Shown: positions 8,257-43,938 of the stretch, piece after piece
Layout: each line of letters begins with the position of its first letter
How positions within the stretch are numbered: the stretch's first letter is position 1
Source: an uncultured Solirubrobacterales bacterium
GTDB lineage: Bacteria; Actinomycetota; Thermoleophilia; Solirubrobacterales; 70-9
Length of the DNA stretch: 64,000 bases
Assembly: GCA_963767475.1 (NCBI GenBank)
Contig: CAVYEI010000002.1
Location: 456,851 to 520,850, forward strand
Reading direction: 5' to 3'
The notes under the pieces: generated by a model
The model's input: only the letters and a program-made list of their open reading frames with translations
What the model was told of the DNA's origin: nothing
Databases searched by the model: none
Translations under genes and position numbers: made by a program

Positions 8257-8441
8257 CCTTCGTTCCTTTCGTGTTGTTTGAGCGAGCCGTACGCCACCCT
8301 CAGCCATAGATGTCGCCAGCCGGGCAGCGCGCCCCCCATGCCAACCCGGACGCTCACCGGCGCCAAGATCTGATCGCGTTTGCTGATCGCCCGATGTGCG
8401 CTGCGAATTGCTCCTGGACCGTCGCTCGACAGGATCCAGGC

Positions 8442-9542: not shown

Positions 9543-9548
9543 GTCGCG

Positions 9549-26271: not shown

Positions 26272-27531
26272 CTAGGCCCGAAACCGCCACGCCGCGTCCT
26301 CCCGGACGTAATGGGGGCTGCCGTCGACGAACGCCGCTACGACAGGGCTGCGGCCGATCAGACTCGCCGTGCTCTCCAGAGGACCATCCAGAACTGTCAG
26401 GTCGGCTCGCTTCCCGGCTTCGATGCTGCCGCGCACCCGCGATTGCCCCAGAACCCACGCACCGTTGAGCGTGGCGGCCGCCAGCGCCTGCTTTGGACTC
26501 CATCCGTACCGGTGGATCGCGAGAGCGACCGCCAAGGGCATCGTCGCGATCGAGGGTTGATCGGGCGCGAAGTCAGTGGCCACCGCGGCGATTGCGGCCG
26601 AGCCGGCCAGCAGGCGCCCCATCGACTCGCCAACCGTATCGGCGCGAAATAGCTCGCTTCCAGGCGCGAGCACGGCTGCGCAATCGTTTTCGGCGAGCCG
26701 CTGGAGATCGCCGCATCCGATGAAAGCTGCGCCGTCGATGGCTCGCGCCCCGGCGGTCAGCGCGGTGGGTATCGCGCGGGAGTTTGCAGCCCGGCAGCGC
26801 AGACGCAGCCCGAGATCAGTCGCCAGTCGGCCCAAACGGTCAGCCTGGAAGCTCGCGATCGGCGACGCCAGATCGAGTTCGACGGCGTTGACTTGCGGCG
26901 ACACGTTCCGCAGCACGGCGGCAACGTGCTGAGCCCAGGAGCCCGAGGTCGCGGGCTCCGATACGACATCGCTCAACACGGCCGTTGCAACAGCGGTGAT
27001 CGGCGGACCGCTTCCGCTGGGTGCAACGGTCGCGCCCGGCGATGAATCGGGCCCGGCCCATTCCCCGAGTTGGCCAGCGAGGGCCGTGGTACCGGACCTG
27101 AGCATTTGCTCGAGCACGCGGCGGGCAGACCTGGACACGGCGGGCACCGGGCGACCGGTCGTCGGGGCGCCGGCAGCCGAGGCGGGTTGCCCGTTGGCCG
27201 ACCCCCGCACACTCCAGGCCGACAGTGGGATACGAGTACGAGGATCGACGAATCCGGGGATGACCGTGCAACCGCTCGCATCCATCCGCAACTCGGCTTC
27301 TGGAGTCGGCTCGAGCGCCGAGATCATCGTCGAGGCGATGCTGATCGATGATGGCGTCAGTCGCTGTCGGTCAGCCTCGTCGAGACGCACGTAAGGCCGG
27401 CCGGGCTGGTCTGGAAGCAGGACCGCCGCGGCGCGATTGATCCAGACGCTCCGAGCCCCAGCAAGCTGCGAAGTATCGAACCGCTGCGACCGAGATTTCG
27501 ATCTCGCCGCCCGAGCCTCGAAGCCGTTCAT
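26272..27531 (-). CDS. Amidohydrolase-superfamily protein, HutI-like but lacking metal ligands
   Basis: 419 aa. [12 protein letters not shown] replaces the HxH motif (FVDSHTHL in the bona fide hutI at 37682..38851). The C-terminal [15 protein letters not shown] motif is conserved. ATGA overlap with the hutU stop. Confidence 0.6.
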
Positions 27532-29171
27532 CCGACCAGGGATGTACTGGCCATTGGGATTCGAACCCCATGGCGGTCCGCGGCCTCGACGGCCTCGCTA
27601 TAGCCGGCGTCCGCGTGGCGCAGGATCCCGGTCAAGGGATCGGCAGCAAGGGTGCGCTCGATCCGATCCCCGGCCTCCCGAGTCCCGTCGGCGACGATCA
27701 CCTGGCCGGCGTGAAGGGACTTGCCCATACCGACGCCCCCTCCATGGTGGAAAGAGACCCAACTCGCCCCGCAGGCGGTATTAACCAAGGCATTGAGTAT
27801 CGGCCAATCCGCGATGGCGTCGGAGCCGTCTCGCATGGCCTCGGTCTCACGCTCCGGCGATGCCACCGAACCAGCGTCGAGGTGATCTCGTCCGATCACG
27901 ATCGGGCCGCGCAACTCGCCGCTCGCGACCATCTCGTTGAACCGCATCCCGGCCAAATGCCGCTCGCCATAGCCGAGCCAGCAGATGCGAGCGGGGAGGC
28001 CTTGGAAGCTGACCGTCTCGCGGGCCTTGCGGATCCAGTCGACGATGTGCTCTTGGTCGGCGAAGAGCTTCAGAAGGGCCTCGTCGGTGCGATAGATGTC
28101 CTGTGGGTCGCCCGAAAGTGCCACCCAGCGAAATGGGCCCTTGCCCTCGCAGAAGAGTGGGCGGATGTATGCCGGGACAAAGCCCGGATACTCGAACGCC
28201 TCCCCGTCTCCGTGGTCGGCCGCCAGTCCTCGCAATGCGTTGCCGTAGTCGAACGCCTGAGCGCCATTGCGGCCCAGCTCCCGAATCGCGGCGACGTGAC
28301 CAAGGACGCTCTCCCCCACTTGCCGCAGGTACTCGTCCGGGTCCCGCTCCCGGAGTGCGGCTCCCTGCTCGGGCGTCAGCCCGGCCGGGAGGTATCCGTT
28401 AAGCGGATCGTGGGCGCTGGTCTGGTCGGTGACAACGTCGACCTCGACCCCGCGCCGTAGCAACTCGGGGAGGACATCCGCGGCATTTCCGAGGAGCCCG
28501 ATCGACAGTGGCCGCCCGGCGCGGCGAGCCGCCTCGAGCCGGGCGAGGGCGTCATCAAGGCTGACAGCGCGTTCGTCGAGGTACCCAGTCTTGATCCTGC
28601 GCTCGATCCGCTGCACGTCGACCTCGATGCAGAGCGCCGTGCCGCCGCAGAGGGTCACCGCCAACGGCTGCGCTCCGCCCATGCCTCCGAGGCCGGCCGT
28701 GACGACGGTGCGGCCGGTCAGGTCGCCGCCGAAGTGCTGGCGGGCGATCGCCGCGAACGTCTCGTAGGTCCCCTGCAGAATTCCCTGACTCCCGATGTAG
28801 ATCCAGGACCCTGCTGTCATCTGCCCGTACATCGTCAGGCCGGCCGCGTCGAGCTCACGGAAGCTGTCCCACGTCGCCCAGGCGGGCACCAGATTCGAAT
28901 TGGCGATCAGCACCCGCGGTGCCCCTTCGTGGGTCGCCACCACCCCGACCGGCTTCCCGGACTGAACCAGCAGCGTTTCTTCGTTCCCGAGTCGCTGGAG
29001 TTCGGCAACGATCGCCTGATAGCACTCCTTATTCCGGGCAGCCTTCCCGATGCCGCCGTAAACGACCAGCCGGTCGGGATCCTCGGCGACGTCCGGATGC
29101 AGGTTGTTCTCGAGCATCCGCAGGGCGGCCTCTTGTACCCAGCCCTTGCAGCGCAGACCCGAAGCCGTCAT
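27528..29171 (-). CDS. hutU: Urocanate hydratase
   Basis: 547 aa. [19 protein letters not shown] site. Urocanase pattern is present throughout. Confidence 0.9.
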
Positions 29172-29947
29172 TGAGTCACCTGCAGCGACTCAGCTCGAAT
29201 CGCGTCGAGGAGCTCGGCCTTCGGTCCCAGGAAAGCTGGGTCCGAGACCATCTCTGGGGCGCGCGGGCGCGGCAGGTCGACCTCGATCTCAGCCTTGATG
29301 CGGCCGGGACGGTTAGTCATGACCAAAACGCGGTCCGAGATGTAGATCGCCTCCTCGACGTCATGCGTAACAAAGAGAACCGTGAGCCGATGCTGCTCCC
29401 AGACCGAGGTCAGGAGCTCCTGCATGAGCTGCCGGGTCAAGGCATCGAGCGCGCCGAACGGCTCGTCCATGAGCAGGACCAGCGGGTGGTAAGACAGGGC
29501 CCGAGCAATCGCGACACGCTGACGCATGCCGCCTGATAGCTGGTTGGGAAGAGCGTCGGCGAAGTCCTCCAACCCGACCATGCTCAGGTGAGCGTCGGCA
29601 ATCTCCCGCCTTTCGGCCTTCGATGAGCAGCTGTCGCGCAGAGCGAACTCGATGTTCTGGCGCGCAGTGAGCCAGGGGAACAATGTGTAGGACTGGAAGA
29701 CGACGCCACGGTCGCGCCCTGGCCCGACGACCAGCTCACCGTCGACGCGCACCTCCCCGGCGGACGGCTCCTCGAGCCCGGCGACGATCGACAGAAGCGT
29801 GCTCTTGCCGCAACCGGACGTGCCGACGAGGGTGACGAACTCATTCGTTGCCACGGAAAGCGTGGCATCGCTCAGAGCTTCGACCTCCGACTTTTTGTCG
29901 GCGAACGTCTTGCCGATGCCTCGAACGTCCAGCTTCGTATCGGTCAT
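29168..29947 (-). CDS. ABC transporter ATP-binding protein (NitT/TauT family type)
   Basis: Walker [10 protein letters not shown], signature LSGGMRQRV, Walker [12 protein letters not shown]. Confidence 0.9.
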
Positions 29948-30831
29948 CGCCGCTCCTCCGCCCAGGAGAAGAGCCGTTTGCCGCTCGCCTTCATCAACTG
30001 ATCTGTGAGTAGGCCGAGCACACCGAGCACCAACAGGTAGCCGATGATCGTCTCGGTCTCGAAGAAGCGCTGAGCGGTCACGATCCGGTATCCCAGTCCC
30101 GAGGTCGCGGCGACTAGCTCTGCGAGAACCAGCCAGGTCCAGGCCCAGCCGAGGCTGATCCTCATCGAATCCCAGATTCCTGGGCCTGCGGCCCGGACGA
30201 TGATCCGGCTCAGGATTGCCCGATCCTTGAGACCCAGGGTGCGCCCGACGTCGATGAAATCGCCCGGAATCCGCCGGACGTTGTCCATGATCAGCAGGAC
30301 CTGCTGGAAGAAGGTCCCGAGCCAGATGATCAGGAACTTCTGGGTTTCGTCGGTTCCCACCCAGACGATCGTCAGAGGCACAAATGCGACGACCGGCATG
30401 TAGCGGACGAAGTCCACGAGCGGCTCCAGCGCAGCCTCCCAGATTCGGTAAGAGCCCGCCAGGACACCGAGCGGGATTGCCATCGCAGTCGCGATGGAGA
30501 ACCCGATCAAGATGCGATAGGAGCTGATCCCGATGTCTGACCAGAGCGTCCCGTCTTTGGCCAGCTCCACCAGCCGGTTGACGACGTCGCCGGGCCCGGG
30601 CAGGAACAACTCGTCCACCCAGCCCGCAGACGTGGCCACGTACCAGACGATGATCAGGGTGACGAAGACCGAGCTCGCCACACCCACCCAGGCGCGTGTG
30701 GACATCGAGCCACGCAGCGCCAGCGACCCCCGCTGGCGCTGCGCCCGGCGGCGGGGCTGAGCTGTGGTGGCCTCAGCCGCCGGCTTGGAGGAGGCGGGGT
30801 TGGCCTCCGTTGGGCTCGAAACCGGAGTCAC
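29944..30831 (-). CDS. ABC transporter permease
   Basis: 295 aa and polytopic, with an EAA-like loop (GRTLGLKDRAILSRIIVRAAGPGI). Confidence 0.85.
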   Translation of the reverse strand: MTPVSSPTEANPASSKPAAEATTAQPRRRAQRQRGSLALRGSMSTRAWVGVASSVFVTLIIVWYVATSAGWVDELFLPGPGDVVNRLVELAKDGTLWSDIGISSYRILIGFSIATAMAIPLGVLAGSYRIWEAALEPLVDFVRYMPVVAFVPLTIVWVGTDETQKFLIIWLGTFFQQVLLIMDNVRRIPGDFIDVGRTLGLKDRAILSRIIVRAAGPGIWDSMRISLGWAWTWLVLAELVAATSGLGYRIVTAQRFFETETIIGYLLVLGVLGLLTDQLMKASGKRLFSWAEERR

Positions 30832-31871
30832 TACTTACTCGCCGCCTCGACGAACGCCGGATCGATCAGGCCGTCGTAGTCAGGCTCAGCGCTCAGGATG
30901 CCGGCGTCCACGCCGACTTGAGCAACGGCCGGAACCGTCTCGTCTGCAAACGAGCCCGTCAACTCGGTCTTGTTCTGCTGGAGGTCGAAGAACTCGACGC
31001 CCTTGAACGCCGTCTCGAGGTCGGCGACGCTGGCGCCGACGCCCTCGGCGATGATGGCCTGCGCGGCTTCAGGATCGGAGCGATAGAACTCGATCGCCTT
31101 GTTCCAGGCCCGCATCAGGCCCGCGATCTGCCCTGGTCGCTCGCTGAGTGCGTCGCCACTCGCGATCAGCACGTCGCTGATCAACCCGGGCTTCTCGCCA
31201 GCGGTGTAGAGCAACTTGAACGACGAATTCTCGTTGAGGGCCGTGGTCAGATACGGCTCGTACGTGACGGCCGCGGGCACCCGTCCGGCGATGGCAGCGC
31301 TACCGGCATCAGCCGCGGGCAGCGGCACCTTTTCGACGTCGTCGATCGTCAGCCCTTCCTGTTGGAGGGCGTAGCGGAGGAGGATGTCGCTGGTGGTTCC
31401 CTCTTCGTAGGCCACGCGCTGGCCCTCGAGGTCGGCGATGGAACTGATGTCGGGACCGGCCAGCACTGCGTCAGCCGTCGTCGAGACGTCCTCCAGCAGC
31501 ACGATCTTGGCCTCCAGGCCAGCTTCAATCAGCTTGAGAGCGGTGTGCGTGGCGACGTTGGAGACCGCCATCTTCCCACTCGCGAATGCCGAGTTCAGGT
31601 CGTTGTCGGTGGTGAAGTTCGTCAACTCCACGTCGAGGCCCTCATCGGCGAAGTACCCCTCCGCCTGGGCCACGTACCACGGCCCGTAACCGATCCAGGG
31701 CTGGATGCCCATCTGAATCGTGCCGCTCTCGGGCTCTGCCGGGATCTCCCCTACGGGACCCGCGGGCTCGGCGTCATTGCTGCCGCAGGCCACCAGGGTC
31801 GCTGCGAACACGATCAGGGCCGCCAACAGAGCGAGCGGCCTCTTGCCGTCACGTCGCTTCACGCACGTCAC
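30831..31871 (-). CDS. ABC transporter substrate-binding lipoprotein (NMT1/THI5-like, sulfonate/nitrate/taurine type)
   Basis: Lipobox LVACGS. Periplasmic-binding-protein pattern. Confidence 0.75.
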   Translation of the reverse strand: MTCVKRRDGKRPLALLAALIVFAATLVACGSNDAEPAGPVGEIPAEPESGTIQMGIQPWIGYGPWYVAQAEGYFADEGLDVELTNFTTDNDLNSAFASGKMAVSNVATHTALKLIEAGLEAKIVLLEDVSTTADAVLAGPDISSIADLEGQRVAYEEGTTSDILLRYALQQEGLTIDDVEKVPLPAADAGSAAIAGRVPAAVTYEPYLTTALNENSSFKLLYTAGEKPGLISDVLIASGDALSERPGQIAGLMRAWNKAIEFYRSDPEAAQAIIAEGVGASVADLETAFKGVEFFDLQQNKTELTGSFADETVPAVAQVGVDAGILSAEPDYDGLIDPAFVEAASK

Positions 31872-33216
31872 CTCCTGTCGCTACTAGTCCAGCGGCGCGG
31901 ATTCGCGCCGCTGCTGCATGAGCCGGGAAGCCCTCCCACTCGGCGAGTGCCAGGGTTGCGCTGCTCAGCCTCTCCATACCCCCCTTATCGAGACGGGCGA
32001 TGGATACGGTCTTAGTGAAGGTCTCGGCCGTAACGCCCGACGAGACCCGAGCGAAGCGGTTCGTCGGCAGAGCGGCCGGCACGCCGATCGTGTAGTTGGC
32101 CGCCGCGAACGGTGTGTCCTGACCGATCAGAATCTCGGCGGCGTGGTGGAGCTCTGGGACCATCCGCTCCGGATTTTTAATCGCAAGCTGGAGGTGCTCG
32201 GGCGCGTAGGTGTTGGCGAACTCGACCGCGCTCGCGAGATCGTCAACCAACACGGCGCCTCCGACCCGGCCAACCGCGGCAAGCGCGTAACTCCGGCGTG
32301 GCTCGGGGAGGGCCGCGAGCTGCTCGGCGACGGCGCCTTGGACGGCCTCGACGAGGTCGCGGTCCACCGTAACCAGGATCGCCGCCGAGTCACTCCCGTG
32401 CTCGGCCTCGCTGAGAAGATCCGCCGCGACAAGACGCGGGTCCGCAGATGCATCAGCAATGATCATGCTCTCAGTCGGACCGAGCACCATCACCGTCGCG
32501 GTTCCGTAGCGCTGGACCTCCATCTGAGCGATCTGGACGGGAGTGCTCCCGGGACCGAGGACCTTAACCGCCTGGGGGATGGTCCTCGTACCGAAAGCGA
32601 GCGCGGCGATCCCGGCCGGGCCGTTGGTCCGAAACACGCGGGCGATGCCCAGCTCCGACGCCACGGCAAGAACGGCCGGGTCAACCCGTCCGTGCTGGCC
32701 CGGGACAGGCGGCACCACGATCGCAATGTCCGGAACGCCGGCGACGACCGCCGGTGTCGCGATCTGGATCAGCGACGAAGGATAGGAGCCCTTGCCACTG
32801 GGAACGAACAGGCCGGCGCTTGGGATCGGCACCACACGCTGCCCGACCTCCACGCCCGGCTCAAGCTCACGGAGCCAGTTCCGCTCACCGAGTGCGAACC
32901 CGTTGAAGGCGCGTACGCGCCCAATCGATGCGCGGATGGCATCGAGGAGGTCGTCCGAAATCTCCGTCTCGGCCCGGGCGAACTCATCCTCGGTCACCTC
33001 GAGGCCGCCGGGATCGACCGAGCACCCGTCGAACTCGAAAAGTGCTCGAGAGACGGCGTCGTCGCCGTTGTTCCGGACGTCCTCGATCAGGCGCCGGATG
33101 GCTGCGACCAGATCGGGGTCGAGCCCATCGCGCCCACGGCTGAGCAGGTGCTCCCGGCCGGCGGAATCGAGTTCTCGCCAGTTGATGACACGCACTGGCC
33201 CCACCGTCGAGCTCAT
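31849..33216 (-). CDS. Histidinol dehydrogenase family protein, non-canonical subfamily (paralog 1)
   Basis: 455 aa. LGPTESMIIADASADPRLVAADLLSEAEHGSDS aligns to the HisD signature, but with E in place of Q before AEH. Confidence 0.75.
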   Translation of the reverse strand: MSSTVGPVRVINWRELDSAGREHLLSRGRDGLDPDLVAAIRRLIEDVRNNGDDAVSRALFEFDGCSVDPGGLEVTEDEFARAETEISDDLLDAIRASIGRVRAFNGFALGERNWLRELEPGVEVGQRVVPIPSAGLFVPSGKGSYPSSLIQIATPAVVAGVPDIAIVVPPVPGQHGRVDPAVLAVASELGIARVFRTNGPAGIAALAFGTRTIPQAVKVLGPGSTPVQIAQMEVQRYGTATVMVLGPTESMIIADASADPRLVAADLLSEAEHGSDSAAILVTVDRDLVEAVQGAVAEQLAALPEPRRSYALAAVGRVGGAVLVDDLASAVEFANTYAPEHLQLAIKNPERMVPELHHAAEILIGQDTPFAAANYTIGVPAALPTNRFARVSSGVTAETFTKTVSIARLDKGGMERLSSATLALAEWEGFPAHAAAARIRAAGLVATGGDVREAT

Positions 33217-34526
33217 GGATAAAGACCTCGTGTGTCGTGGGCCTCGGCGACCCGCTGCACCGCGAGAAGCATCGCCGCGTCACGCAATGAAAGGCAACGC
33301 TCGCCGGCGACCGCGAGGACCGCCCGGCAGGCCGCATCGAGCTGCTCGGTGACGCGCCGATAGACCTCCTCGTCTGAGAACGCCCGTCCGTTGGCCTCCT
33401 GGAGGGCTTCCAGGTGACTCGCTATTACTCCCCCGGCATTCGCGAGGATGTCGGGGACCACCACGACTCCGGCCTCGCCCAAGAGGCGATCGGCGGCCAC
33501 GGAGATCGGGCCGTTGGCGGCCTCGACGACGATCCCCGCTTTGACGCCAGGCGCATTGGCGTCGCCGATCACGCCGGCAACGGAGGCCGGGATGAGCACG
33601 TCGCAGTCGGCTTCCAGCACTGACTCGCGATCGACAGGCTCGCCGGCACTGCTCGTCATCACCGTCCCATGCTCGCCGGCGGCGCTAAGCAGTGCGGCGT
33701 GATCGAGGCCATCCGGATCGAGGCGCCCCCCAGCCACGTCCGACACCGCGACGAGGCGAAAATCACCTCGCTCGGCCAGCGCCTGGGCCGCGGCCCGTCC
33801 GACCTCCCCGAAGCCGGCAATCGCAACTCGAATCGGCTTCGGCACCCGATGTTGGTTGCAGATCACCTCGAGCAGATGAGCGACACCGTGGCCCGTGGCC
33901 GTGCGGCGTACATCGGTCCCCCCCACGATCACCGGCTTGCCGGTGACCGGCGAACCAAAGGCACCTCCAGCCAGAGAGCGATATGTATCAAGGATCCACG
34001 CCATCTCCCGCGCGCCGGTTCCGATATCTGGCGCCAGCACGTCGCGGCCCGGACCGATTATCGGGGCGACCTCGCTCGCGTAACGCCTTGTGATCCGCTC
34101 GAGCTCATACGGAGTGTGGCTTTCCGGCGCGCAGCGGACGGCTCCCTTGGCGCCGCCGAACGGAATATCGGCCAAAGCGCATTTCCAGGTCATGCGCATC
34201 GCCAAAGCCTTGGTCTCGTCGAGAGACGCGAGATCGTGATAGCGGAGCCCGCCCTTCGCCGGACCCCGGGTCAGGCTGTGCTGGACCCGGTACCCGCGAA
34301 ACGTCTTGACCTCTCCTGAGTCGAGACGCACCGGAAGACTGACTTCAAGCGAGCGCCGTGGTCGCCTGAGGAACTCGCGCTGGCCGTCGTCGAGGTCGAG
34401 CAGATCGGCAGCGCGCGCGAACTGCGCTTCTGCCTCGCTGAGGTCGGCTGTCCCGAGGCGGTCAGCATCGGCCGCCTCCACCAGGGGAACGGGCTGAGCT
34501 ACGGGGCTGGGCGGTGCGGAAGTCAC
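33213..34526 (-). CDS. Glu/Leu/Phe/Val dehydrogenase family protein
   Basis: 437 aa. ALADIPFGGAKGAV catalytic-Lys box. Rossmann motif IAGFGEVGRAAA. GTG start is uncertain. Confidence 0.8.
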   Translation of the reverse strand: MTSAPPSPVAQPVPLVEAADADRLGTADLSEAEAQFARAADLLDLDDGQREFLRRPRRSLEVSLPVRLDSGEVKTFRGYRVQHSLTRGPAKGGLRYHDLASLDETKALAMRMTWKCALADIPFGGAKGAVRCAPESHTPYELERITRRYASEVAPIIGPGRDVLAPDIGTGAREMAWILDTYRSLAGGAFGSPVTGKPVIVGGTDVRRTATGHGVAHLLEVICNQHRVPKPIRVAIAGFGEVGRAAAQALAERGDFRLVAVSDVAGGRLDPDGLDHAALLSAAGEHGTVMTSSAGEPVDRESVLEADCDVLIPASVAGVIGDANAPGVKAGIVVEAANGPISVAADRLLGEAGVVVVPDILANAGGVIASHLEALQEANGRAFSDEEVYRRVTEQLDAACRAVLAVAGERCLSLRDAAMLLAVQRVAEAHDTRGLYP

Positions 34527-34599: not shown

Positions 34600-34660
34600 A
34601 TCGCGTCAAACATGCCTTGTCAAGGGCATCTTGCGCCGAATCTGCTTATATATGGAAAGG

Positions 34661-35524
34661 ATGGTGGTCTCAAGCGGATCGGCGGACCGGGCGCTGGAGA
34701 TACTGACCGACCTATCCGAGAGGGCCCTGCCGGTCGCGACAACGGTCCTATCGCGCGAGCATGGGATTCCCCGCTCCAGCCTGCATCGGCTGCTGCACGG
34801 CTTGGAGGCGCGCGGGCTGGCACGCTACGACGAGAACTCGCGAGGTTGGGTGCTTGGGTCCGAGGCCGCAGCGCTGGTCCCGGGCGTTGTGACGCTGGAC
34901 GATGGTCTCAGCGTCCTCGAAGCTTTCGACCGACAGACTCTCGATCTCGACCCCGACACGATCGCCGAGCGCAGCGGCCTGGACGCCGAACGAGTTCGCC
35001 GCGTCGCCCGGCAGCTCGAGAGCCACCGGCTCCTGACGAGAGACGGCACCGGCTACACGCTCGGCCCGCACCTGGCCGCGCTCGCTGCGCGGTTCGAACC
35101 GTTCGAACAGTTGCGGGCGGCAGCGCGACCCGTGCTGACGGATCTTCGAGATGCCACCGGCGAGACCGCCAGTCTGGTGATCCGCGACGGGAACTACGCG
35201 GTGTATCTGGATCAGGCCGAGAGCCGGCATGCACTGCGCCATGCGGGCTGGGCCGGTCGGTCGATTCCGCTGGAGGGCACCGCCGCCGGCGCCGCCCTGT
35301 CCGGTCGGGGCCGCGGCCCGCACGAGGCGACCGACGCGGTCGAGATCGGCGTGGCCGCCATCGCGCAGGCTGTTCGGTACCCACCGATCGGGGCCGCGGC
35401 CGTAAGCCTGATCGCCCCAGCTTCCCGACTCATGGGACAAGCGCGGCTGGACGCGCGCGCCGCCGTAGCGGAGGCAGCAGATGAAGTCGTGGCCCGGCTG
35501 GAGCGGAGTGCTCAGTCAAGCTGA
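34661..35524 (+). CDS. IclR family transcriptional regulator
   Basis: SD GGAAAGGA before the ATG at 34661 (alternative ATG at 34652). wHTH RALEILTDLSERALPVATTVLSREHGIPRSSLHRLLHGLEARGL. Confidence 0.8.
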   Translation: MVVSSGSADRALEILTDLSERALPVATTVLSREHGIPRSSLHRLLHGLEARGLARYDENSRGWVLGSEAAALVPGVVTLDDGLSVLEAFDRQTLDLDPDTIAERSGLDAERVRRVARQLESHRLLTRDGTGYTLGPHLAALAARFEPFEQLRAAARPVLTDLRDATGETASLVIRDGNYAVYLDQAESRHALRHAGWAGRSIPLEGTAAGAALSGRGRGPHEATDAVEIGVAAIAQAVRYPPIGAAAVSLIAPASRLMGQARLDARAAVAEAADEVVARLERSAQSS

Positions 35525-35534
35525 CGCTGAGGCG

Positions 35535-37685
35535 TCATGCGACCAAGAACCGATCGAGAACATTCTTGGTGATGCGCGCCACGTTGTTCTGGTATCGCGA
35601 GTGGGACAGGGCGCTTGTCCAGGAGATAGACCCGACCGAAAACACGAATCCGTTTCCGGGCGTTTCGAACAGCACCATGTCGGCGCGGATGAACGGATCG
35701 GAGGTGAGAGGAACGTAGTCCTGGAAGCCACGCGCTCGGGCGAGCACCAACGCATGGTCCGGCGAGCCGAGGAGAGGGTCGAGGCCATCCACCTCGTACC
35801 CGGCAGCCCCGCCGAAGCCCAGGCCAAAGTCGCCGATCGCCTCGTCGTCGCCGATGCCCTCGAACACGAACGCGGCCCGCGGGTCGAAGCTGTCGGCCTG
35901 GCGCTTGTAGAACGTCGCACCGCAAAAGCCCATGCCGACCGACTCGACGCCGACGAGCGCGCGTGGCGTCTCCTTGCGCTGCGACCAACGGCCGCCCGGC
36001 TCACCCGTAGCGGCGAGACGCCCTTCGCCGGGCTCGCTCTCCCAGAGGTCGGCGTGGCCGAGCGACCGCCGAACCTCGGTGACGTGGTCTCGCTCGGGAT
36101 GAACCCCGGTCACCATCGTGAACCCGTTGCCCCCCAGGTACATCAGCCGTCCGCCCGCGCCGAGATAGCCGTCCAGCGCCCTCATCTGCGAGTGGGTGGT
36201 GTATTCCGGATGACTTCCGGTGAGCACGGTCCGGTAGCGGCCGAGGAGGTCGTCCCCATGTTCGTGCACGTCCTCGTCGACGATCAGGTCGTGCGGGACC
36301 CGCTCATGGCGCAGCCAGTCGAGCAGGTAGAGGTCCGCGCCGAGGCCGTGCGGCGCTCCCGTCAGCCAGTAGCGATATGAGGGCCGTAGGCTTGGAAGGG
36401 GCCGGAGGCGGGAGGCGTGAACCACGCCCGAGCCGTCCTCGTGACGGTTGTATTGACTGAGCAGCCCGGTGGCAGCGACGTAGTGATCGTCTTCGCTCTC
36501 GATCACTGGGTCGAAAGGGGGCACGATGCGCTCGCCGGCGTATGCGAGATAGGTAAACGTCGGCAGCCAGACCGCGACCGCGGCCTTGGGCTCGCGCGAC
36601 CGGACCAGGAATGGGACCCTGTCGGTAGCACCTGACTCGGTTTCGAGCCGCAGTGCGTAGACGCCCGACTCGAGCTCCGGGAGTTTGATGCCGACATCGC
36701 TCTCCCACCCTGCATCCTCGAGATCGTCGGCGTGAAAGTGAATCGCCGCATACTCGGCCGGGGCCAGGCGCCAGTCGTAGGCCTGCCCCGACCACAAGTG
36801 TCCGGTCACCGCTCTCGTCGGCATGTTCACCAGGTCGGCATGCCATGAGTTGGCGCCGCAGTCGACGACTCGAGCCGTAGGTATCCCGATCGAGAAATCC
36901 CACGCCGCAAGAACGCCTTGAGAGGCTCTGTACTCACCTGCGGCGCTAAGACGTCGGATCTCCTCCGGCGCCGCCGCGCGCTCGAGAACGACTGGGGCCT
37001 CGAGCTTGCCGTCAAAGTGCCCCCGGGGGCGGCGGTCGCGATCCAAATGAGCGGCGATCAGATAGGGAAGCCCGTCCGCATCCAGCCTTTCGGAGCTGCA
37101 GCCTGTCGTTCTGCGGCTCGCGCTCTCCACAAACCCCGGCACGGTGGATTCCGGCTCGTGGTGGATCGCGGCCACCCCGTCGAGTCGCTCGAAGGTCGCG
37201 ATGACGAGATGCCACATTCGAGGCGCCAACGCGCGCTCGGTGCGGACGGCCGTGTGGCCGCCGATGATGAGCGCGACGTCGCCTTCGGGCATGAGGAACA
37301 AGCCATAGCCGCGTGACGAGCCGGGGCTCTCGAGCCACCTGGCCAGAAGGGCCTGCTTGCGGCCGCCGGGGCGGGTGGCGTAGACCCGGACGGCGAGAGA
37401 GAGAGCGTCGGGCGTCGGGCTGGAGGCACTTTCGCGAGCCACGGCATACGAGCCACGATCGATGCCCTGGAGCCGGGCCGCGTGGCTTGAGCCATATCCC
37501 GTGATCGGCTCTTCAACCGAGCCAGGCCCATCGGCCGAGGTGTCGCCGTGGAGCAGGCGCACCAGGCCCGCCTCGTACGGTTCGGGACTGCTGACCATAA
37601 AGCGCAAACGCTCGCCCGGCGCGGCGACCAGCGCGTCCGCGTATCCGGTCAGCTTGTCGCCGGCGCCCCGATGATCGGCAGTCAA
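35535..37685 (-). CDS. Large hypothetical protein, N,N-dimethylformamidase large-subunit-like
   Basis: 716 aa. The N-terminus LTGYADALVAAPGERLRFMVSS resembles, from memory, the start of DMFase beta-subunit family proteins. 4-nt overlap with the hutI stop. Assignment made without a search. Confidence 0.45.
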   Translation of the reverse strand: MTADHRGAGDKLTGYADALVAAPGERLRFMVSSPEPYEAGLVRLLHGDTSADGPGSVEEPITGYGSSHAARLQGIDRGSYAVARESASSPTPDALSLAVRVYATRPGGRKQALLARWLESPGSSRGYGLFLMPEGDVALIIGGHTAVRTERALAPRMWHLVIATFERLDGVAAIHHEPESTVPGFVESASRRTTGCSSERLDADGLPYLIAAHLDRDRRPRGHFDGKLEAPVVLERAAAPEEIRRLSAAGEYRASQGVLAAWDFSIGIPTARVVDCGANSWHADLVNMPTRAVTGHLWSGQAYDWRLAPAEYAAIHFHADDLEDAGWESDVGIKLPELESGVYALRLETESGATDRVPFLVRSREPKAAVAVWLPTFTYLAYAGERIVPPFDPVIESEDDHYVAATGLLSQYNRHEDGSGVVHASRLRPLPSLRPSYRYWLTGAPHGLGADLYLLDWLRHERVPHDLIVDEDVHEHGDDLLGRYRTVLTGSHPEYTTHSQMRALDGYLGAGGRLMYLGGNGFTMVTGVHPERDHVTEVRRSLGHADLWESEPGEGRLAATGEPGGRWSQRKETPRALVGVESVGMGFCGATFYKRQADSFDPRAAFVFEGIGDDEAIGDFGLGFGGAAGYEVDGLDPLLGSPDHALVLARARGFQDYVPLTSDPFIRADMVLFETPGNGFVFSVGSISWTSALSHSRYQNNVARITKNVLDRFLVA

Positions 37686-38851
37686 TGGCCCGCTACCAGC
37701 TCCCCGCCGAGAAAGACCGCGGCCGACAATGGAACCCCAGGTCGGTAAACCAGGTGGGCGTAAGTTGGAGCCTCGAGAAGGAGGGCGTCGGCCCGAGAAC
37801 CGGGCGCGAGCCGTCCGAGATCGTCTCGACGCAGGGCGACGGCGCCACCGATGGTCGCCGCCTGCAGCGCTTCCTCGATCGTCATTCTCAGATCCCGCAC
37901 GGCGAGCGCAATCACGAATGGCATCGAGGTAGTGAAGCTCGATCCCGGGTTTGTGTTCGTCGCCAGGGCGACGTTGACGCCGGCATCGATCGCCCGTCGT
38001 GCGTCCGGATAGGGCTGGCGCGTCGAGAAATCCGTCGCTGGCAGGTAGGTGGCAACGGTGCGGCTGCCGGCCAGCGCTGCGATGTCGTCATCGGAGAGAT
38101 ACGTGCAGTGGTCCACCGACGCGGCATCCATCTCGACCGCGAGGGCCGCGCCAGGGCCGGGGCCAAGCTGGTTGCCGTGAACGCGTAGGCCCAATCCCGC
38201 CTGCCGCCCGGCCTCGAGCACGCGAAGGGACTGCTCGCGGTCGAACGCTCCTCGCTCGCAGAAGACATCGATCCAGCGAGCGTGCGGCGCGCAGGCTTCG
38301 AGCATCGGGCCGCAGACCAGGTCAACGTAGGCATCGGGATGCCCGTTGTACTCCTCCGGCACAAGATGCGCGCCGAGGAACGTCACATCGTCAGTCAGCA
38401 TCGCGGCCAGCCGGCAGAGGCGCTCCTCGGAGTCGACCGATAGGCCATACCCGGACTTGACCTCCTGGTGAGTGATGCCGCACGCGATCGCTTCGGCGCC
38501 TCGCGACCGCCCCAGCTCGAGAAGCTCCTGGTCGGTGGCGCTTCGCGTCGCCTCGGTGGTGACCTGGATGCCGCCGGCTTCATACGGCGCCCCGGCCATC
38601 CTCGCCGCGAACTCCTCGCCCCGGTCGCCGGCAAACAGCAGGTGGGTGTGGCTGTCGACGAAGCCCGGGATGAGGCAGCGTTCGCCTGCGTCGAAATGCC
38701 GGTCGCCTTGTGCACCGGTCGGTTCGACCGCCTTTACGACGCCGTCCTCGACGACCAACGCAGCGTTGTGAACGACGCCGAGAGGCCCCTCGCCCTGCGC
38801 GGGATCGTTGCTGACGAGCACCCCGATGCGATCGATGACCAGAGCGCTCAT
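37682..38851 (-). CDS. hutI: Imidazolonepropionase
   Basis: 389 aa. IPGFVDSHTHLLFAGDR, HGNQLG, SVDHCTYL and ALATNTNPGSS metal/active-site motifs. Confidence 0.9.
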   Translation of the reverse strand: MSALVIDRIGVLVSNDPAQGEGPLGVVHNAALVVEDGVVKAVEPTGAQGDRHFDAGERCLIPGFVDSHTHLLFAGDRGEEFAARMAGAPYEAGGIQVTTEATRSATDQELLELGRSRGAEAIACGITHQEVKSGYGLSVDSEERLCRLAAMLTDDVTFLGAHLVPEEYNGHPDAYVDLVCGPMLEACAPHARWIDVFCERGAFDREQSLRVLEAGRQAGLGLRVHGNQLGPGPGAALAVEMDAASVDHCTYLSDDDIAALAGSRTVATYLPATDFSTRQPYPDARRAIDAGVNVALATNTNPGSSFTTSMPFVIALAVRDLRMTIEEALQAATIGGAVALRRDDLGRLAPGSRADALLLEAPTYAHLVYRPGVPLSAAVFLGGELVAGH

Positions 38852-40173
38852 TCCCAGGCCTTAGCGATCGACTCGCGCAGCTCGCGCGGAACGTCCAGCT
38901 CACAGTGCTGTCCATCGCGGACGATCTCGCGACCTCCGCAAACAACTCGGGCGACGTCGGCAGCCGTCGCGGCATACACGGCAAACTCAAGCGCCGTGTC
39001 GACCTCCACGCCGGCGGCCCGCACGCCATCAAGCCTGACGGTCAGCAGGTCCGCCGGGGCCCCGGGAGCCAGCGACCCGGCCGCTGGCCAGCCGATGGAC
39101 GTGTGACCGCCGGCCGTGGCCGCGGTCAGGAGCGCGTCGGTCCGGTGTCGCCCTCGCTGGCCGCTTTCGAGGCGTTCGTCAAGCTCGATTGCCCGTGTCT
39201 CCTCGAAGCCGTCGATGATCGCGTGAGAGTCGGTCCCGACCGCCAGCGGGCTCCCAGCCCGGGCAAGGTCCGCGGCCGGGCCGATGCCGTCCGCCAGGCT
39301 CCTTTCGGTCGTCGGGCATATGCAACAGCACGAGTGCGACGCACCGAGGAGCTTCACGTCGGCGTCACTGAGGTGGGTGGCGTGCACTGCCGTGAAGGAG
39401 CTACCGAGGGCTCCAGCGTCATCCAGCACCGCGCTGGGGGTTCTGCCATACGCCGCCAGACAGGCTTCGTTCTCCGCCGGCTGCTCGGAGACGTGAGCGT
39501 GTAGCGGCCATTCCCGCTCGGCGGCGAACTTAGCGACCGCGCGGGCTTCGTCGGGAGCAACGGCGCGAACGCTGTGAATCGCGGCGCCGAGGACTGCTCC
39601 GTCGCACGCGGTCAGGAGATCGGCGCGCTCAGCCCAGGCCTGGACCCGCCCGTCGGAGAACCGCCGCTGGATCTCGTCGGGCTCCTCACCGATGCCCCCA
39701 TGCAGGTAACAGGTATCAAGCAGTGTTATGCGGATCCCGGCCTGCGCCGCGGCCTCGGTCAAGCGCACGCCGATCTCATTCGGATCGTCGTACGGTTGTC
39801 CTCGAGGCCCGTGATGCAGGTAGTGAAACTCGCCAACGGCGGTGAAACCGGCGAGCGCCATCTCGCCGAAGACCGCCCGGGCCAGGCGAAAGTATCGGTC
39901 GGGGTCGAGCTTGGCCGCGAGCTCGTACATGCGCTCCCGCCAGCTCCAGAAGCTGTCGTCGCTCTCGGTCCGCCCGCGAAGGGCACGGTGAAAGGCATGC
40001 GAGTGAGCGTTGGCAAGACCGGGAAGGGTGAGGCCGTCGAGTCGGGTGGCGTCGGCCGGGCACCCCGTGACACGCCGCACCGACGCGATCCGGCCGCTGT
40101 CCGTCTCGATCAAGATCGAGTGCTCAGCCCGGTCTCCCCCCAGCCAGGCCAATTGGCACCAGTATTTGGTCAC
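38848..40173 (-). CDS. hutF: Formimidoylglutamate deiminase
   Basis: 441 aa. LPGLANAHSHAFHRALRGRTE is the typical HutF N-terminal motif. Amidohydrolase fold. Confidence 0.8.
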   Translation of the reverse strand: MTKYWCQLAWLGGDRAEHSILIETDSGRIASVRRVTGCPADATRLDGLTLPGLANAHSHAFHRALRGRTESDDSFWSWRERMYELAAKLDPDRYFRLARAVFGEMALAGFTAVGEFHYLHHGPRGQPYDDPNEIGVRLTEAAAQAGIRITLLDTCYLHGGIGEEPDEIQRRFSDGRVQAWAERADLLTACDGAVLGAAIHSVRAVAPDEARAVAKFAAEREWPLHAHVSEQPAENEACLAAYGRTPSAVLDDAGALGSSFTAVHATHLSDADVKLLGASHSCCCICPTTERSLADGIGPAADLARAGSPLAVGTDSHAIIDGFEETRAIELDERLESGQRGRHRTDALLTAATAGGHTSIGWPAAGSLAPGAPADLLTVRLDGVRAAGVEVDTALEFAVYAATAADVARVVCGGREIVRDGQHCELDVPRELRESIAKAWE

Positions 40174-40745
40174 GAGCCGACTCGCTCAACGAACGTGCTG
40201 ATGCGGGTCACGAACTCATCCCGACGGAAGCGCTCGAATTGCTCCCATGTGCTCAGGGTGGTCGGATCGAGTACGCGATCGAGAAAGAGCACGCCGTTGA
40301 GATGATCGATTTCGTGCTGGAACGTCCCAGCGGTCAATCCGCGATAGACCTGGTCGTGGGAAACCCCGTGGCGGTCGAGGTAGCGGAGGCGCACCTTGAC
40401 GTGGCGCAAGAGCTCGCCGCGCAGATTCGGTATGGACAGGCAGCCCTCGTTGATCGAAACCGTCTCCCGATCCAGTGGCTCGATTACAGGATTGATCAGA
40501 ACTGTCAGCGGCAGCGGCGGCTTGTACGGATAGCGTTCGTTGTCGGCCACCTCGGCCACGGCGATGCGCACCGTGTGGCCAACTTGATTCGCTGCCAGTC
40601 CGGCGCCGCGAGCGTGGCGCATGGTCTCGATCATGTCGTCGATCAGCTGTTGAGTGTGCGGTGCCGTGAGCTCTTCGACACTTACGTCGCGCGATGGCTC
40701 GCGCAGGGTCGGATGCCCAATCTCGAGGATCGGCAAACCGGCCAT
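40170..40745 (-). CDS. def: Peptide deformylase family protein
   Basis: 191 aa. All three PDF motifs are present: GAGLAANQVG, EGCLSIP and QHEIDHLNG. ATGA overlap with the hutF start. Confidence 0.85.
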   Translation of the reverse strand: MAGLPILEIGHPTLREPSRDVSVEELTAPHTQQLIDDMIETMRHARGAGLAANQVGHTVRIAVAEVADNERYPYKPPLPLTVLINPVIEPLDRETVSINEGCLSIPNLRGELLRHVKVRLRYLDRHGVSHDQVYRGLTAGTFQHEIDHLNGVLFLDRVLDPTTLSTWEQFERFRRDEFVTRISTFVERVGS

Positions 40746-40770: not shown

Positions 40771-42384
40771 TCAGGCCAGCTCTCCGACGACCTGCTCCAC
40801 CTCGGTCCGCAGTAGCCCGGAAGCGAGCAGCGATTCGACCGCGGCGAGCTCTGGTGCGAGCCAGCGGTCTGCCCCGGCACCCGGTACGAGCTGGCGTACC
40901 GCACGCAGCGCTGCTTGTGTTCCTGGAGCCGGCTCCAGCGGCGCTCGCAGTTCCAAGGCCCGCGTCCCACAGGCTATTTCCACCGCGAGGATCCGCCGGA
41001 GGTTGGCGATTGCCGATCGGAGCTTCCGCGCAGCCCCCCACCCCATAGAGACATGATCCTCCTGCATTGCGCTGGTCGGCAGCGAGTCGGTGCTCGCCGG
41101 GACCGCCAGCCGGCGATTCTCGGCAACCATTGCCGCCTGCGTGTACTGAGCGATCATCAGCCCCGAGTTGACCCCGGCCTCCGGAGCCAGGAACGGGGGC
41201 AGGCCATGCGACCGACTCGGGTCGAGCAGACGATCAGTACGGCGCTCGGCGATGGAGCCGACCTCGCTGGCGCCGATGGCCAGAAAGTCGCAAGCCATGG
41301 CCACCGGTGCGCCGTGGAAGTTGCCGCACGACTCGACCCGCCCATCCGGGAGGATCATCGGGTTGTCGATCGCCGACCTCAGCTCGGCTTCGGCGACGAA
41401 GACGGCATACGCGTGCGTATCTCGCGAGGCCCCATGGACCTGAGGCGTACACCGAATCGAGTAGGCATCCTGAACGCGTGGGTCGTTCTCCCGGTGACTG
41501 GCAACGACCTCCGATCGATCGAGCAGGCGGCGCAGGTTCGCGGCGCTCAGCGCCTGGCCCGGCTGGGGGCGCAGCGCGATCAGGTCGGCCGCGAACGCGC
41601 GGTCGGTGCCGAGCAGGGCCTCGGTTGTGATCGAGGCGGCGAGGTCGGCCAGCGTCAAGAGGTCGGCCAGATCCTCGAGCGACATAACCAGCATGCCGAG
41701 AATCCCGTCGGTGCCATTGATCAGGGCCAACCCTTCTTTGGGTCCGAGCGCCAGCGGACGGAGGCCGACGGCAGCGAGACCGTCCGCGGCGGGCACGATC
41801 CGATCATGCTGATCAAAGATTTCGCCCTCGCCAATCAGGGCCAATGCGCACGCCGCCAGTGGCGCCAGATCGCCGCTCGCACCCAAGGAGCCATGCTCGG
41901 GTACCACCGGATCCAGGTCCGCGTTCAGCATCGCGAGCAAGCCGCCCGCCACGAGCGGGCTGGCGCCCGAGCGCCCCATCGCGAGCGACCGAGCCCTCAG
42001 GAACATCATCGCCCGGACGACCTCGCGCTCAACGGGCGGTCCCATTCCCGCCGCATGTGAGCGGATCAGGGCCAGCTGGAGCTCTGCCAGGCGTTCGGGC
42101 GGAATACGCGTATGCGCCAGCGACCCGAAACCGGTAGAGATTCCATAGGCGGCATCACCACTCTCGGCGATGCGGCCGACTGCGGCGTGTGACCGCTCCA
42201 TCGCGCCATCGGCGTCCTCGCCGAACCGCACTCGTGCTCGATGCCGGGCAACCGCCACGACGTCGGGCCGTGACACACCGTCTGTTCCGATCTCGATTTG
42301 ATCCACAGGTCCCATCCTGACGATCACCTGACGGGTCGATTCACCAGTCCGACGTAAAAGCGTCCAGATTCCGGGACGCGTCAC
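40771..42384 (-). CDS. hutH: Histidine ammonia-lyase
   Basis: MIO-forming triad in SLGASGDLAPLA. HAL/PAL fold throughout. The true start may be the internal MGPVDQ (42315). Confidence 0.9.
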   Translation of the reverse strand: MTRPGIWTLLRRTGESTRQVIVRMGPVDQIEIGTDGVSRPDVVAVARHRARVRFGEDADGAMERSHAAVGRIAESGDAAYGISTGFGSLAHTRIPPERLAELQLALIRSHAAGMGPPVEREVVRAMMFLRARSLAMGRSGASPLVAGGLLAMLNADLDPVVPEHGSLGASGDLAPLAACALALIGEGEIFDQHDRIVPAADGLAAVGLRPLALGPKEGLALINGTDGILGMLVMSLEDLADLLTLADLAASITTEALLGTDRAFAADLIALRPQPGQALSAANLRRLLDRSEVVASHRENDPRVQDAYSIRCTPQVHGASRDTHAYAVFVAEAELRSAIDNPMILPDGRVESCGNFHGAPVAMACDFLAIGASEVGSIAERRTDRLLDPSRSHGLPPFLAPEAGVNSGLMIAQYTQAAMVAENRRLAVPASTDSLPTSAMQEDHVSMGWGAARKLRSAIANLRRILAVEIACGTRALELRAPLEPAPGTQAALRAVRQLVPGAGADRWLAPELAAVESLLASGLLRTEVEQVVGELA

Positions 42385-42612: not shown

Positions 42613-43938
42613 CTACGGCCGTCGACGCACTGACACCGTCGCCGCGTGGGCGGGGAATCCCTCGTGGGCAGCCAGCGCCTCAACTGTGGGCGCAAGCCGC
42701 CAAAACGCCTCCTCGGTGAGGCTGGCGACAGCGGAACGCACCAAGTACGTCGCCGCAGTCACGCCGCTCGAGACCTTCGCGAATCCAGTCGTCGGCAGCG
42801 TTGCCGGCGTGCCGGTAGCGAAATTTGACATCGCGAAGGTCGTCCACGGGCCGAGCAGGATCGTGCCCGCATAGCGGATCAACGGCATCCACGCCTCTGG
42901 GTCCGCCACCGCCAGCAGTAGGTGCTCTGCGCCGTAGTCGTTCGCGATCTCGGCGGCTTGGGCCATGTCCGCCGCGAGGATCAGCCCTCCATTCATGGCG
43001 ATTGACGAAACGGCGTATGTGCACCGCGGTTCCGGCAAGCGCTCCAGCTGTGGGGTCAGCTCGTCGACGACCGACTCGAGCAGCCGGCGATCAGTCGAGA
43101 TGAGGATGGCCGACGAGTCCGACCCGTGCTCGGCCTCGTTGAGGAGGTCAGCGGCCAGAACCTTCGGATCGGCCGAGCCGTCGGCGATGATTGCCGCGTC
43201 GGTCGGGCCGAAACCGACCTCGACGACCGTCCCGAATTGCTGGACGAGCATTTGCGCGAGTGTCACACCGCGCCCGCCGGGACCGACGATCTTGCCGACC
43301 CTGGGGACGGATTCCGTGCCGAGAGCCATCGCCGCGATGCCAGCCGGTCCATTGCAGCGGAAGATATCTCGAACACCGAGCTCGTCGAGGGCGACCAGTG
43401 TCGCGGGATCGATGGTTCCGTCGTGCAAAGGCGGAACGCCGACAACGATTCGCTCAACCCCGGCGACCACGGCGGGGGTAGCGATCTGAATTGCGACCGA
43501 CGGATAGGACCCTTTCCCGCTAGGAACAAAAAGTCCGACGCTCGGTATCGCGCTCGCACGCTCACCGAGCATCGTGCCGTCGGGCCTCACAGCTTTCCAG
43601 GACGCGCGATCGCGGATCAGCTCGTTGAACTGTCGTGATTGAGCGATCGACGTCCTGATGGCCTGCAGGAGCTGGTCCGACACGAGGCTGCGCGCACGCT
43701 CGACTTCGCCCCGATCGACCCGCAACCGGCTCGCAGGGACGAGGACGTCGTCGTAAACACGAAGGGCTTCCACCAAGGCCGTGTCGCCGTGGACCCGAAC
43801 GCGGTCGACGAGCGCCTGGATCGACGTCCGGATATCGGAGTTCGGCCCGAGGCCCGCGGCGTTCCCGCCGCGAGTAATTACCCGTGCTCGCTCCGACTCC
43901 GTCGCGTGGGACCAGTCGAGGATCGTGAATGTTGTCAT
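42613..43938 (-). CDS. Histidinol dehydrogenase family protein, non-canonical subfamily (paralog 2)
   Basis: 441 aa. FGPTDAAIIADGSADPKVLAADLLNEAEHGSDS. SD GGAAGGAA. Confidence 0.75.
   Translation of the reverse strand: MTTFTILDWSHATESERARVITRGGNAAGLGPNSDIRTSIQALVDRVRVHGDTALVEALRVYDDVLVPASRLRVDRGEVERARSLVSDQLLQAIRTSIAQSRQFNELIRDRASWKAVRPDGTMLGERASAIPSVGLFVPSGKGSYPSVAIQIATPAVVAGVERIVVGVPPLHDGTIDPATLVALDELGVRDIFRCNGPAGIAAMALGTESVPRVGKIVGPGGRGVTLAQMLVQQFGTVVEVGFGPTDAAIIADGSADPKVLAADLLNEAEHGSDSSAILISTDRRLLESVVDELTPQLERLPEPRCTYAVSSIAMNGGLILAADMAQAAEIANDYGAEHLLLAVADPEAWMPLIRYAGTILLGPWTTFAMSNFATGTPATLPTTGFAKVSSGVTAATYLVRSAVASLTEEAFWRLAPTVEALAAHEGFPAHAATVSVRRRP

Follow-up and report, generated by a model that had tools for sequence, protein, structure and literature searches.

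A peptide deformylase-like protein of actinobacterial hut operons as a candidate N-formyl-L-glutamate deformylase

Introduction

Which enzyme completes histidine degradation in a bacterium whose hut operon carries a gene resembling def, the gene for peptide deformylase (PDF), at the place where a HutG is expected? The five-step histidine utilization (Hut) pathway requires a formylglutamate hydrolase after HutF (PMC12772324). The question is raised by a 64,000-nucleotide stretch of DNA, called the window here, from an uncultured Solirubrobacterales bacterium (assembly GCA_963767475.1, contig CAVYEI010000002.1, positions 456,851 to 520,850 of the forward strand), in which a Def-like gene lies between hutH and hutF. 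An earlier note, made from the letters of the window, proposed that the Def-like protein replaces HutG. The analysis reported here supports that reading through three comparative results: the linkage of def to hut genes in 67 loci, the fusion of PDF to HutF, and the pairing of HutF with other hydrolases elsewhere. The S1' pocket of the enzyme also differs from that of ordinary PDFs. The Def-like protein is probably a non-orthologous N-formyl-L-glutamate deformylase, the equivalent of HutG (EC 3.5.1.68).

The Def-like gene and its operon

The Def-like gene (40170..40745, minus strand) starts with ATG and encodes a protein of 191 residues, the candidate N-formyl-L-glutamate deformylase of PDF fold. 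The protein matches the Pfam family PF01327 with 158.6 bits (cutoff 22.8) and the NCBIfam models TIGR00079 and NF001159 with 123.5 bits (cutoff 103.95) and 157 bits (cutoff 125). By sequence, by motifs and by fold it is a member of the peptide deformylase family. The three catalytic motifs, described as intact in the earlier note, were all found: GAGLAANQVG at residues 47-56, EGCLSIP at 100-106 and QHEIDHLNG at 143-151.

The gene order hutH-def-hutF-hutI-large gene was borne out as well. All five genes are on the minus strand and the identities of the hut genes are given by profile matches. Upstream of def is hutH, histidine ammonia-lyase (40771..42384; TIGR01225, 637 bits, cutoff 539; PF00221, 590 bits). 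Its coordinates are those of the longest open reading frame (ORF), and the true start may lie further downstream because the family matches begin near residue 29. Downstream of def are hutF, formimidoylglutamate deiminase, whose product is N-formyl-L-glutamate (38848..40173; NF006681, 611.5 bits, cutoff 362; TIGR02022, 467 bits, cutoff 413), then hutI, imidazolonepropionase (37682..38851; TIGR01224, 334 bits, cutoff 298), and a gene for a 716-residue protein. The stop of def and the start of hutF overlap by 4 bp as had been described, but the overlap reads GTGA, not ATGA (40170..40173, minus strand): hutF starts with GTG at 40173-40171 and def stops with TGA at 40172-40170, an arrangement of translational coupling. 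Overlaps of 4 bp are found also between hutF and hutI and between hutI and the gene for the 716-residue protein. A scan of the 33-44 kb region for promoters and terminators was uninformative: the count of promoter-like sites was 0, and terminator-like sites were no more frequent than chance would give.

A conventional HutG was sought with Pfam models among about 50 ORFs of the window. None of these ORFs matched the FGase family (PF05013), the arginase-type HutG family (PF00491) or the M20 family, in agreement with the earlier claim that the 64 kb contain no FGase-family HutG. The M20 model PF01546 found no match in the Def-like protein either. Since PF01327 is the only Pfam match of this protein, it is an analog and not a member of FGase.

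Conservation of def among hut genes

Together with proteins 67-76% identical to it, all 191 residues long, the Def-like protein forms a tight family whose sole name in the sources is "peptide deformylase". Its genomic surroundings were surveyed in one genome per GTDB species, which gave 80 loci, with the Hut proteins of the window compared by tblastn; 64 kb of the window genome and about 20 kb around the gene in the other genomes were covered. In 65 of the 80 species-representative loci def is hut-linked, and these comprise every locus outside the Myxococcota (n=65) with a Def at least about 52% identical. Judged by their titles, the 65 are actinobacterial except for two given only as "bacterium"; Acidimicrobiia account for about 37 and Thermoleophilia (Solirubrobacterales, Conexibacteraceae) for about 18, and some 10 bear less precise names. 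Two further loci (L001 and L002) bring to 67 the number that have Def together with at least one hut gene.

The most frequent order among these loci is hutH-hutU-def-hutF-hutI. The hutF gene is immediately downstream of def in 57/67 loci, and the estimated spacing of the two genes is 30 bp or less in 50 loci, with a 4-bp overlap in 17. Operons that have been rearranged keep def, as in hutH-hutF-hutI-hutU-def (L042) and hutU-hutF-hutI-def-hutH (L064, L072). The def-hut arrangement is repeated in three independently annotated contexts, and within 10 kb in these three, annotated with Pfam, there is no FGase, arginase or M20 gene. When the neighboring ORFs were clustered (4-5 kb around 63 clusters), no other family occurred in more than nine loci. 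Beside hutH, hutU, hutF and hutI, def alone is universal in these operons as a fifth gene. Every member of the group seen in the two classes is hut-linked, which is not the behavior expected of a universal housekeeping gene. The survey of def inside hut operons that the earlier note had proposed thus found the linkage in 67 loci of two actinobacterial classes.

The most frequent of the other neighbors is a PhyH-family (PF05721) dioxygenase-like gene that some Acidimicrobiia carry between hutU and def. It is seen in about nine operons of this class (L001, at 9174-10004, L002, L015, L019, L021, L027 and others) and has no match among the NCBIfam families.

Fusions of PDF with HutF

An exhaustive search of protein cluster representatives recovered 24,691 PDF representatives at E ≤0.001, with 101 at ≤1e-30. 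Among its top matches were proteins in which Def and HutF are combined in a single chain. The clearest is P0255, a protein of 659 residues with a clean architecture: PDF (1-190), a linker, and HutF (211-657). Both halves score above the curated cutoffs, with 377 bits for NF006681 (cutoff 362) and 130 bits for NF001159 (cutoff 125). Four full-length variants, from at least 17 contigs in JGI, Logan and ENA, fall in its 90% cluster. A search with P0255 returned about 16 clusters of PF01327-amidohydrolase fusions, 642-736 residues long, including EukProt/MMETSP transcriptome entries such as that of the chrysophyte Paraphysomonas. The genomic contexts of the fusions look eukaryotic, with genes for Oscp1, ankyrin/LRR, EF-hand and ABCC-type transporter proteins. 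Another apparent Def-HutF fusion, P0229, from a contig of a long-read metagenome-assembled genome, was rejected as a frameshift artefact with garbled sequence, and P0138, P0140 and P0150 are possibly of the same kind. For this reason the argument from fusion is built on the P0255 family alone, which recurs in independent assemblies.

HutF is fused to a second kind of hydrolase in oomycetes (Phytophthora, Pythium, Lagenidium and Globisporangium), where an M20 peptidase domain is attached to its C-terminus. These HutF-M20 proteins are 827-861 residues long and are named "formiminoglutamate deiminase" (P0296, P0308, P0332, P0345, P0351, P0386, P0390, P0392). On a contig from Acidobacteria (L094, 6835-9314) an M20 gene immediately precedes hutF, and the two overlap at ATGA. 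M20 proteins were predicted on the basis of SEED to be an "alternative N-formylglutamate deformylase", but the member from Streptomyces avermitilis was without deformylase activity (PMC3223725, Table 3), which leaves the M20 assignment itself unproven; the gap in the pathway was thus already recognized in that record. The linkage of HutF with M20 revives M20 as a HutG analog in oomycetes and Acidobacteria despite that negative result. The partner slot of HutF is thus held by FGase (Pseudomonas, PMC12772324), M20 or PDF-like proteins, the last two also as fusions to HutF. Occupation of one slot by alternative hydrolases is what non-orthologous displacement of a single step classically looks like.

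The PDF search also returned proteins of 330-514 residues with tandem PDF domains, recognized as two separate matches to the query (P0156, P0201, P0218, P0230, P0248, P0260).

The active site

Residue conservation was compared between 64 hut-linked sequences and 15 relatives without hut linkage. G47, G49, Q54, E100, G101, C102, L103, H144, E145 and H148 are invariant in the 64. The first motif, G47-A-G-L-A-A-N-Q54 (40584..40607, minus strand), in which A48, A51 and A52 are likewise invariant in 64/64, places Ala48 at the position of the E. coli S1' residue Ile44. The second, E100-G-C-L-S104 (40434..40448, minus strand), is invariant in 64/64 and includes the metal ligand Cys102. The third, Q143-H-E-I-D-H148, which together with the preceding G140-T141 spans 40302..40328 (minus strand), provides the metal ligands His144 and His148 and the catalytic Glu145. 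G140 is present in 63/64 and T141 in 64/64 of the hut-linked sequences; they replace Ile128 and Cys129 of the E. coli enzyme.

The replaced residues belong to the substrate pocket. Ile44 and Ile128 of E. coli PDF (Ile42 and Ile130 of AtPDF1B) line the Met-binding S1' pocket, as do the Streptococcus agalactiae equivalents of E. coli Ile44, Leu125 and Cys129 (PMC3101196, PMC5071857). Of the hydrophobic E. coli S1' residues Ile44, Ile86, Leu125, Ile128 and Cys129, the hut-linked group has changed Ile44 to Ala48, Ile128 to Gly140 and Cys129 to Thr141, with Ile98 (in most sequences) and Leu137 retained. The positions of Ile44 and Ile128 hold much smaller residues.

A further subfamily-specific feature, Tyr74-Lys75, is in the lid (CD) loop, R71-Y-P-Y-K-P-P77 (40512..40532, minus strand), of which R71, Y72, P73, Y74, K75 and P76 are invariant in the 64 sequences. 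The RYPYKP loop is present also in the Myxococcota relatives (with one Arg at 75) and in every fusion PDF domain whose sequence spans it; the PDFs of Leptospira and Burkholderia have G-T or D-A at the position of Tyr74-Lys75. The PDF domains fused to HutF keep all the catalytic residues, A48, RYPYKP and G140-T141. Residue 99 (40449-40451) is Asn in 64/64 hut-linked sequences and Trp, Tyr or Phe in 15/15 relatives without hut linkage. Asn99 was considered as a specificity switch and rejected: the fusion PDF domains carry Ile, Val, Phe, Tyr or Ala there, so that Asn99 is at most lineage-specific and not a general determinant.

An AlphaFold2 model of the Def-like protein has a mean confidence (pLDDT) of 82 overall, above 90 in the core and poor for residues 155-191. 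Its best Foldseek match is the Leptospira PDF 1sv2 (probability 1.00, template modelling scores 0.79/0.88). From the substitutions we infer that Ala48, Gly140-Thr141, Tyr74-Lys75 and, in the actinobacteria, Asn99 would make a site for formyl-Met peptides suitable for a small dicarboxylate instead. A larger and more polar pocket, together with Lys75, would take the side chain and the carboxylates of glutamate.

Proposed reaction

In the proposed pathway HutH, HutU and HutI would convert histidine to N-formimino-L-glutamate, from which HutF would release ammonia to give N-formyl-L-glutamate. Next, the Def-like enzyme, encoded on the same transcript as HutF and often translated in a coupled manner, would hydrolyze N-formyl-L-glutamate to formate and L-glutamate by PDF chemistry. 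The metal would be held by Cys102, His144 and His148, Glu145 would act as the general base, and the oxyanion would be held by Gln54 and the amide of Leu103. The L-glutamate released could be used by the glutamate dehydrogenase encoded nearby in the window. The genes, the intact catalytic residues, the operon linkage and coupling, and the HutF fusions are observed features; the identity of the substrate is inferred from them.

Relatives without hut linkage

The closest relatives outside the hut operons are in the Myxococcota (L055-L074, L090-L093). They form a tight family of 191-residue PDF-like proteins that are 52-57% identical to the window protein. The signature residues, A48, the Tyr-Lys loop and G-T, are mostly present, and residue 99 is Tyr or Phe. 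The contexts of these genes vary: next to an M24 peptidase gene, next to a methyltransferase gene with GST, or divergent from nuo genes. Sequences from Rokubacteria and related organisms are 47-51% identical and of the Leptospira type. In neighbor-joining trees the hut-linked and Myxococcota sequences group together in 148-154/200 bootstraps and the fusion clade is recovered in 200/200.

Several observations weigh against the assignment of the Def-like protein to the last Hut step. No hut genes were found within 8-10 kb of the Myxococcota genes for signature-bearing proteins, so the signature is not proven to mark specificity for N-formylglutamate. Monophyly of the hut-linked group is unsupported, at 29-65/200 neighbor-joining bootstraps. 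The window protein scores above the NCBI equivalog cutoff for a genuine peptide deformylase. Ordinary PDFs act poorly on free N-formyl amino acids, so that a real change of specificity would be required. Two loci, L014 (10001-11796) and L016 (1259-2988), have def followed by hutI and no hutF in the available stretch; their hutF may be elsewhere, or the pathway may be different there. In the window a second gene of a formamidase family, that of the 716-residue protein, is also coupled to the hut operon. Lastly, the stretches covered are compatible with a canonical hutG elsewhere in these genomes, or with there being no other def. Neither fmt nor a second def was found in the window or in 82 loci within about 10 kb on each side, a result that is uninformative at this scale; the queries were E. 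coli Def, E. coli Fmt and M. tuberculosis Def.

Alternative explanations

The Def-like protein could be an ordinary peptide deformylase, housekeeping or auxiliary, that acts on nascent formyl-Met peptides and merely resides in the hut operon. Its full PDF motifs, its scores over the equivalog cutoffs and a fold closest to that of the active Leptospira enzyme are what such a protein would show. One of the Myxococcota relatives is directly downstream of the M24 (Met-aminopeptidase-like) gene with a 4-bp overlap, a normal context for N-terminal processing, and no second def was seen in the 10 kb or so inspected on each side of the gene. However, 67 loci place def among hut genes, usually coupled to hutF and even after the operon has been rearranged, which is a misfit with a housekeeping gene placed there by chance. 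For a ribosome-associated enzyme there is no rationale for the fusion to HutF in eukaryotes, and two key hydrophobic S1' residues are replaced by Ala and Gly. An ordinary deformylase is therefore unlikely. A role within histidine catabolism on another substrate, such as hydrolysis of N-formimino-L-glutamate to glutamate and formamide or action on another formyl or formimino intermediate, is chemically close, since attack of a metal-bound hydroxide on the formimino carbon would be similar, and the two loci with def and hutI but no visible hutF would suit it. But an equivalog-scoring hutF adjoins def in most of the loci, and fusion of the PDF domain to HutF argues for consecutive rather than alternative reactions; such a role is distinctly unlikely.

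The formylglutamate hydrolase might also be a different protein. A canonical HutG of the FGase or M20 type could be encoded elsewhere in these genomes, of which 64 kb and about 20 kb were covered, leaving the Def-like protein redundant or regulatory. In these lineages, though, hut genes otherwise lie in tight clusters, no FGase or M20-type gene is recurrent near the 63 hut-def clusters, and the PDF-HutF fusions argue for a catalytic role; a distant HutG of this kind is very unlikely. Hardly probable at all is that the 716-residue protein is the real N-formylglutamate hydrolase in the window, with Def in some other role. It is a full-length homolog of a formamidase and an acylase and its gene overlaps hutI by 4 bp. 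Yet no homolog was found by tblastn within 10 kb of the other approximately 70 hut-def loci, while Def is always present, and the gene was rejected as a conserved substitute for HutG.

Other genes in the window

The gene for the 716-residue protein (35535..37685, minus strand; PF20254, 248 bits) had been called a large amidase-like gene. The amidase/formamidase type stands, but the homology to the large subunit of N,N-dimethylformamidase (DMFase) had gone unrecognized. Over its full length the protein matches the DMFase large subunit (PDB 6lvb) with 359 bits and N-acetyl-(R)-beta-phenylalanine acylase (8huy) with 346 bits. The alignment shows conservation of Tyr399, Tyr440 and Glu521, reportedly the iron ligands of DMFase (Arya et al. 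2020). No gene for a DMFase small subunit was noted. The protein is best regarded as an accessory, whose substrate might be an N-acylated histidine, with release of the amino acid, or a formyl compound.

Convergent with the end of the operon is a gene for an IclR-family protein (34631..35524, plus strand; PF09339, PF01614), a possible regulator of the hut operon. The urocanate hydratase gene, hutU (27528..29171, minus strand; TIGR01228, 902 bits, cutoff 375), is apart from the other hut genes in this genome, about 8.5 kb past the end of the operon. Its end is overlapped by a gene (26272-27531, minus strand) for a 419-residue amidohydrolase, a HutI-like paralog that scores only 87 bits with the hutI model (cutoff 298).

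Between the two hut blocks are, besides the IclR regulator, genes for glutamate dehydrogenase (33213-34526), a protein of the histidinol dehydrogenase family (HisD-like; 31849-33216) and an SsuA/NMT1-type ABC transporter (29168-31871), and a second HisD-like gene is found upstream of hutH (42613-43938), all on the minus strand. The arrangement points to an extended island devoted to a substrate related to histidine, histidinol for example. In a relative from the Thermoleophilia (L017) HisD-like and binding-protein genes are likewise upstream of hutH. Far from the operon, at 8310-12693 (plus strand), a gene of the Glu/Leu/Phe/Val dehydrogenase family is followed by genes for 2-oxoacid dehydrogenase E1 alpha, E1 beta and E2. 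This cluster looks like one for branched-chain amino acid catabolism; it is unrelated to the Def-like gene and fits an amino-acid-degrading lifestyle.

Relation to known systems and significance

The nearest characterized protein is the PDF of Leptospira interrogans (PDB 1sv2/1y6h; PF01327, EC 3.5.1.88). The two share the fold, the motifs, the Cys-His-His metal site, the catalytic Glu and Gln and an enlarged CD loop with R-Y-P, and are 40-43% identical over the Foldseek alignments. Unlike the Leptospira-type enzymes, the hut-linked protein is co-translated in a catabolic operon and is fused to HutF in eukaryotes. It has Ala and Gly for Ile/Val44 and Ile128, a Tyr-Lys inserted in the lid loop and, in the actinobacterial group, Asn for the aromatic residue before EGCLS, and on the present proposal its substrate would be a free N-formyl amino acid and not a peptide.

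With HutG of Pseudomonas (FGase, PF05013, EC 3.5.1.68) the Def-like protein would share the reaction and the step after HutF (PMC12772324), but there is no sequence relationship and the fold and metal site are different. The HutG/HutE formimidoylglutamase of the arginase family (PF00491) also ends the Hut pathway with release of glutamate. It acts, however, on N-formimino-glutamate, yields formamide and needs no HutF, whereas in the window hutF is present and coupled. The M20-family (COG0624) candidates for HutG resemble the Def-like protein in their slot adjacent to hutF, in their fusions to HutF and in the logic of displacement, though they are from a different family (PF01546/PF07687). A full-text search of the literature library used found no paper that links peptide deformylase to formylglutamate, histidine utilization or HutF. 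The reaction and both protein families are known; the placement of a PDF subfamily in the Hut pathway seems to be new, as does the fusion of PDF to HutF. If the assignment is correct, no PDF-fold enzyme would, to our knowledge, have been given a role in small-molecule catabolism before this one.

The whole PDF subfamily with A48, R-Y-P-Y-K-P and G140-T141 may well consist of hitherto unrecognized small-molecule deformylases for N-formyl amino acids, N-formylglutamate in particular, and have no part in protein maturation. It would be a third independent solution to the last Hut step, used in Acidimicrobiia, Thermoleophilia and possibly Myxococcota, and as a bifunctional PDF-HutF protein in chrysophytes and other protists. 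For annotation this matters because all the named members encountered here go under "peptide deformylase" and the window protein itself scores over the equivalog cutoff; the assignment would also explain eukaryotic proteins labelled just "formimidoylglutamate deiminase". For the specificity of PDF, an antibiotic target, the hut-linked proteins are natural variants of the S1' pocket. The PDF-HutF and M20-HutF fusions offer a clean system for the study of non-orthologous displacement and of possible substrate channelling. Many Actinomycetota are without an annotated formylglutamate hydrolase, and the M20 candidate failed in Streptomyces (PMC3223725). If true, a PDF-type HutG would fill this gap in two classes of actinobacteria that are abundant in soil and freshwater.

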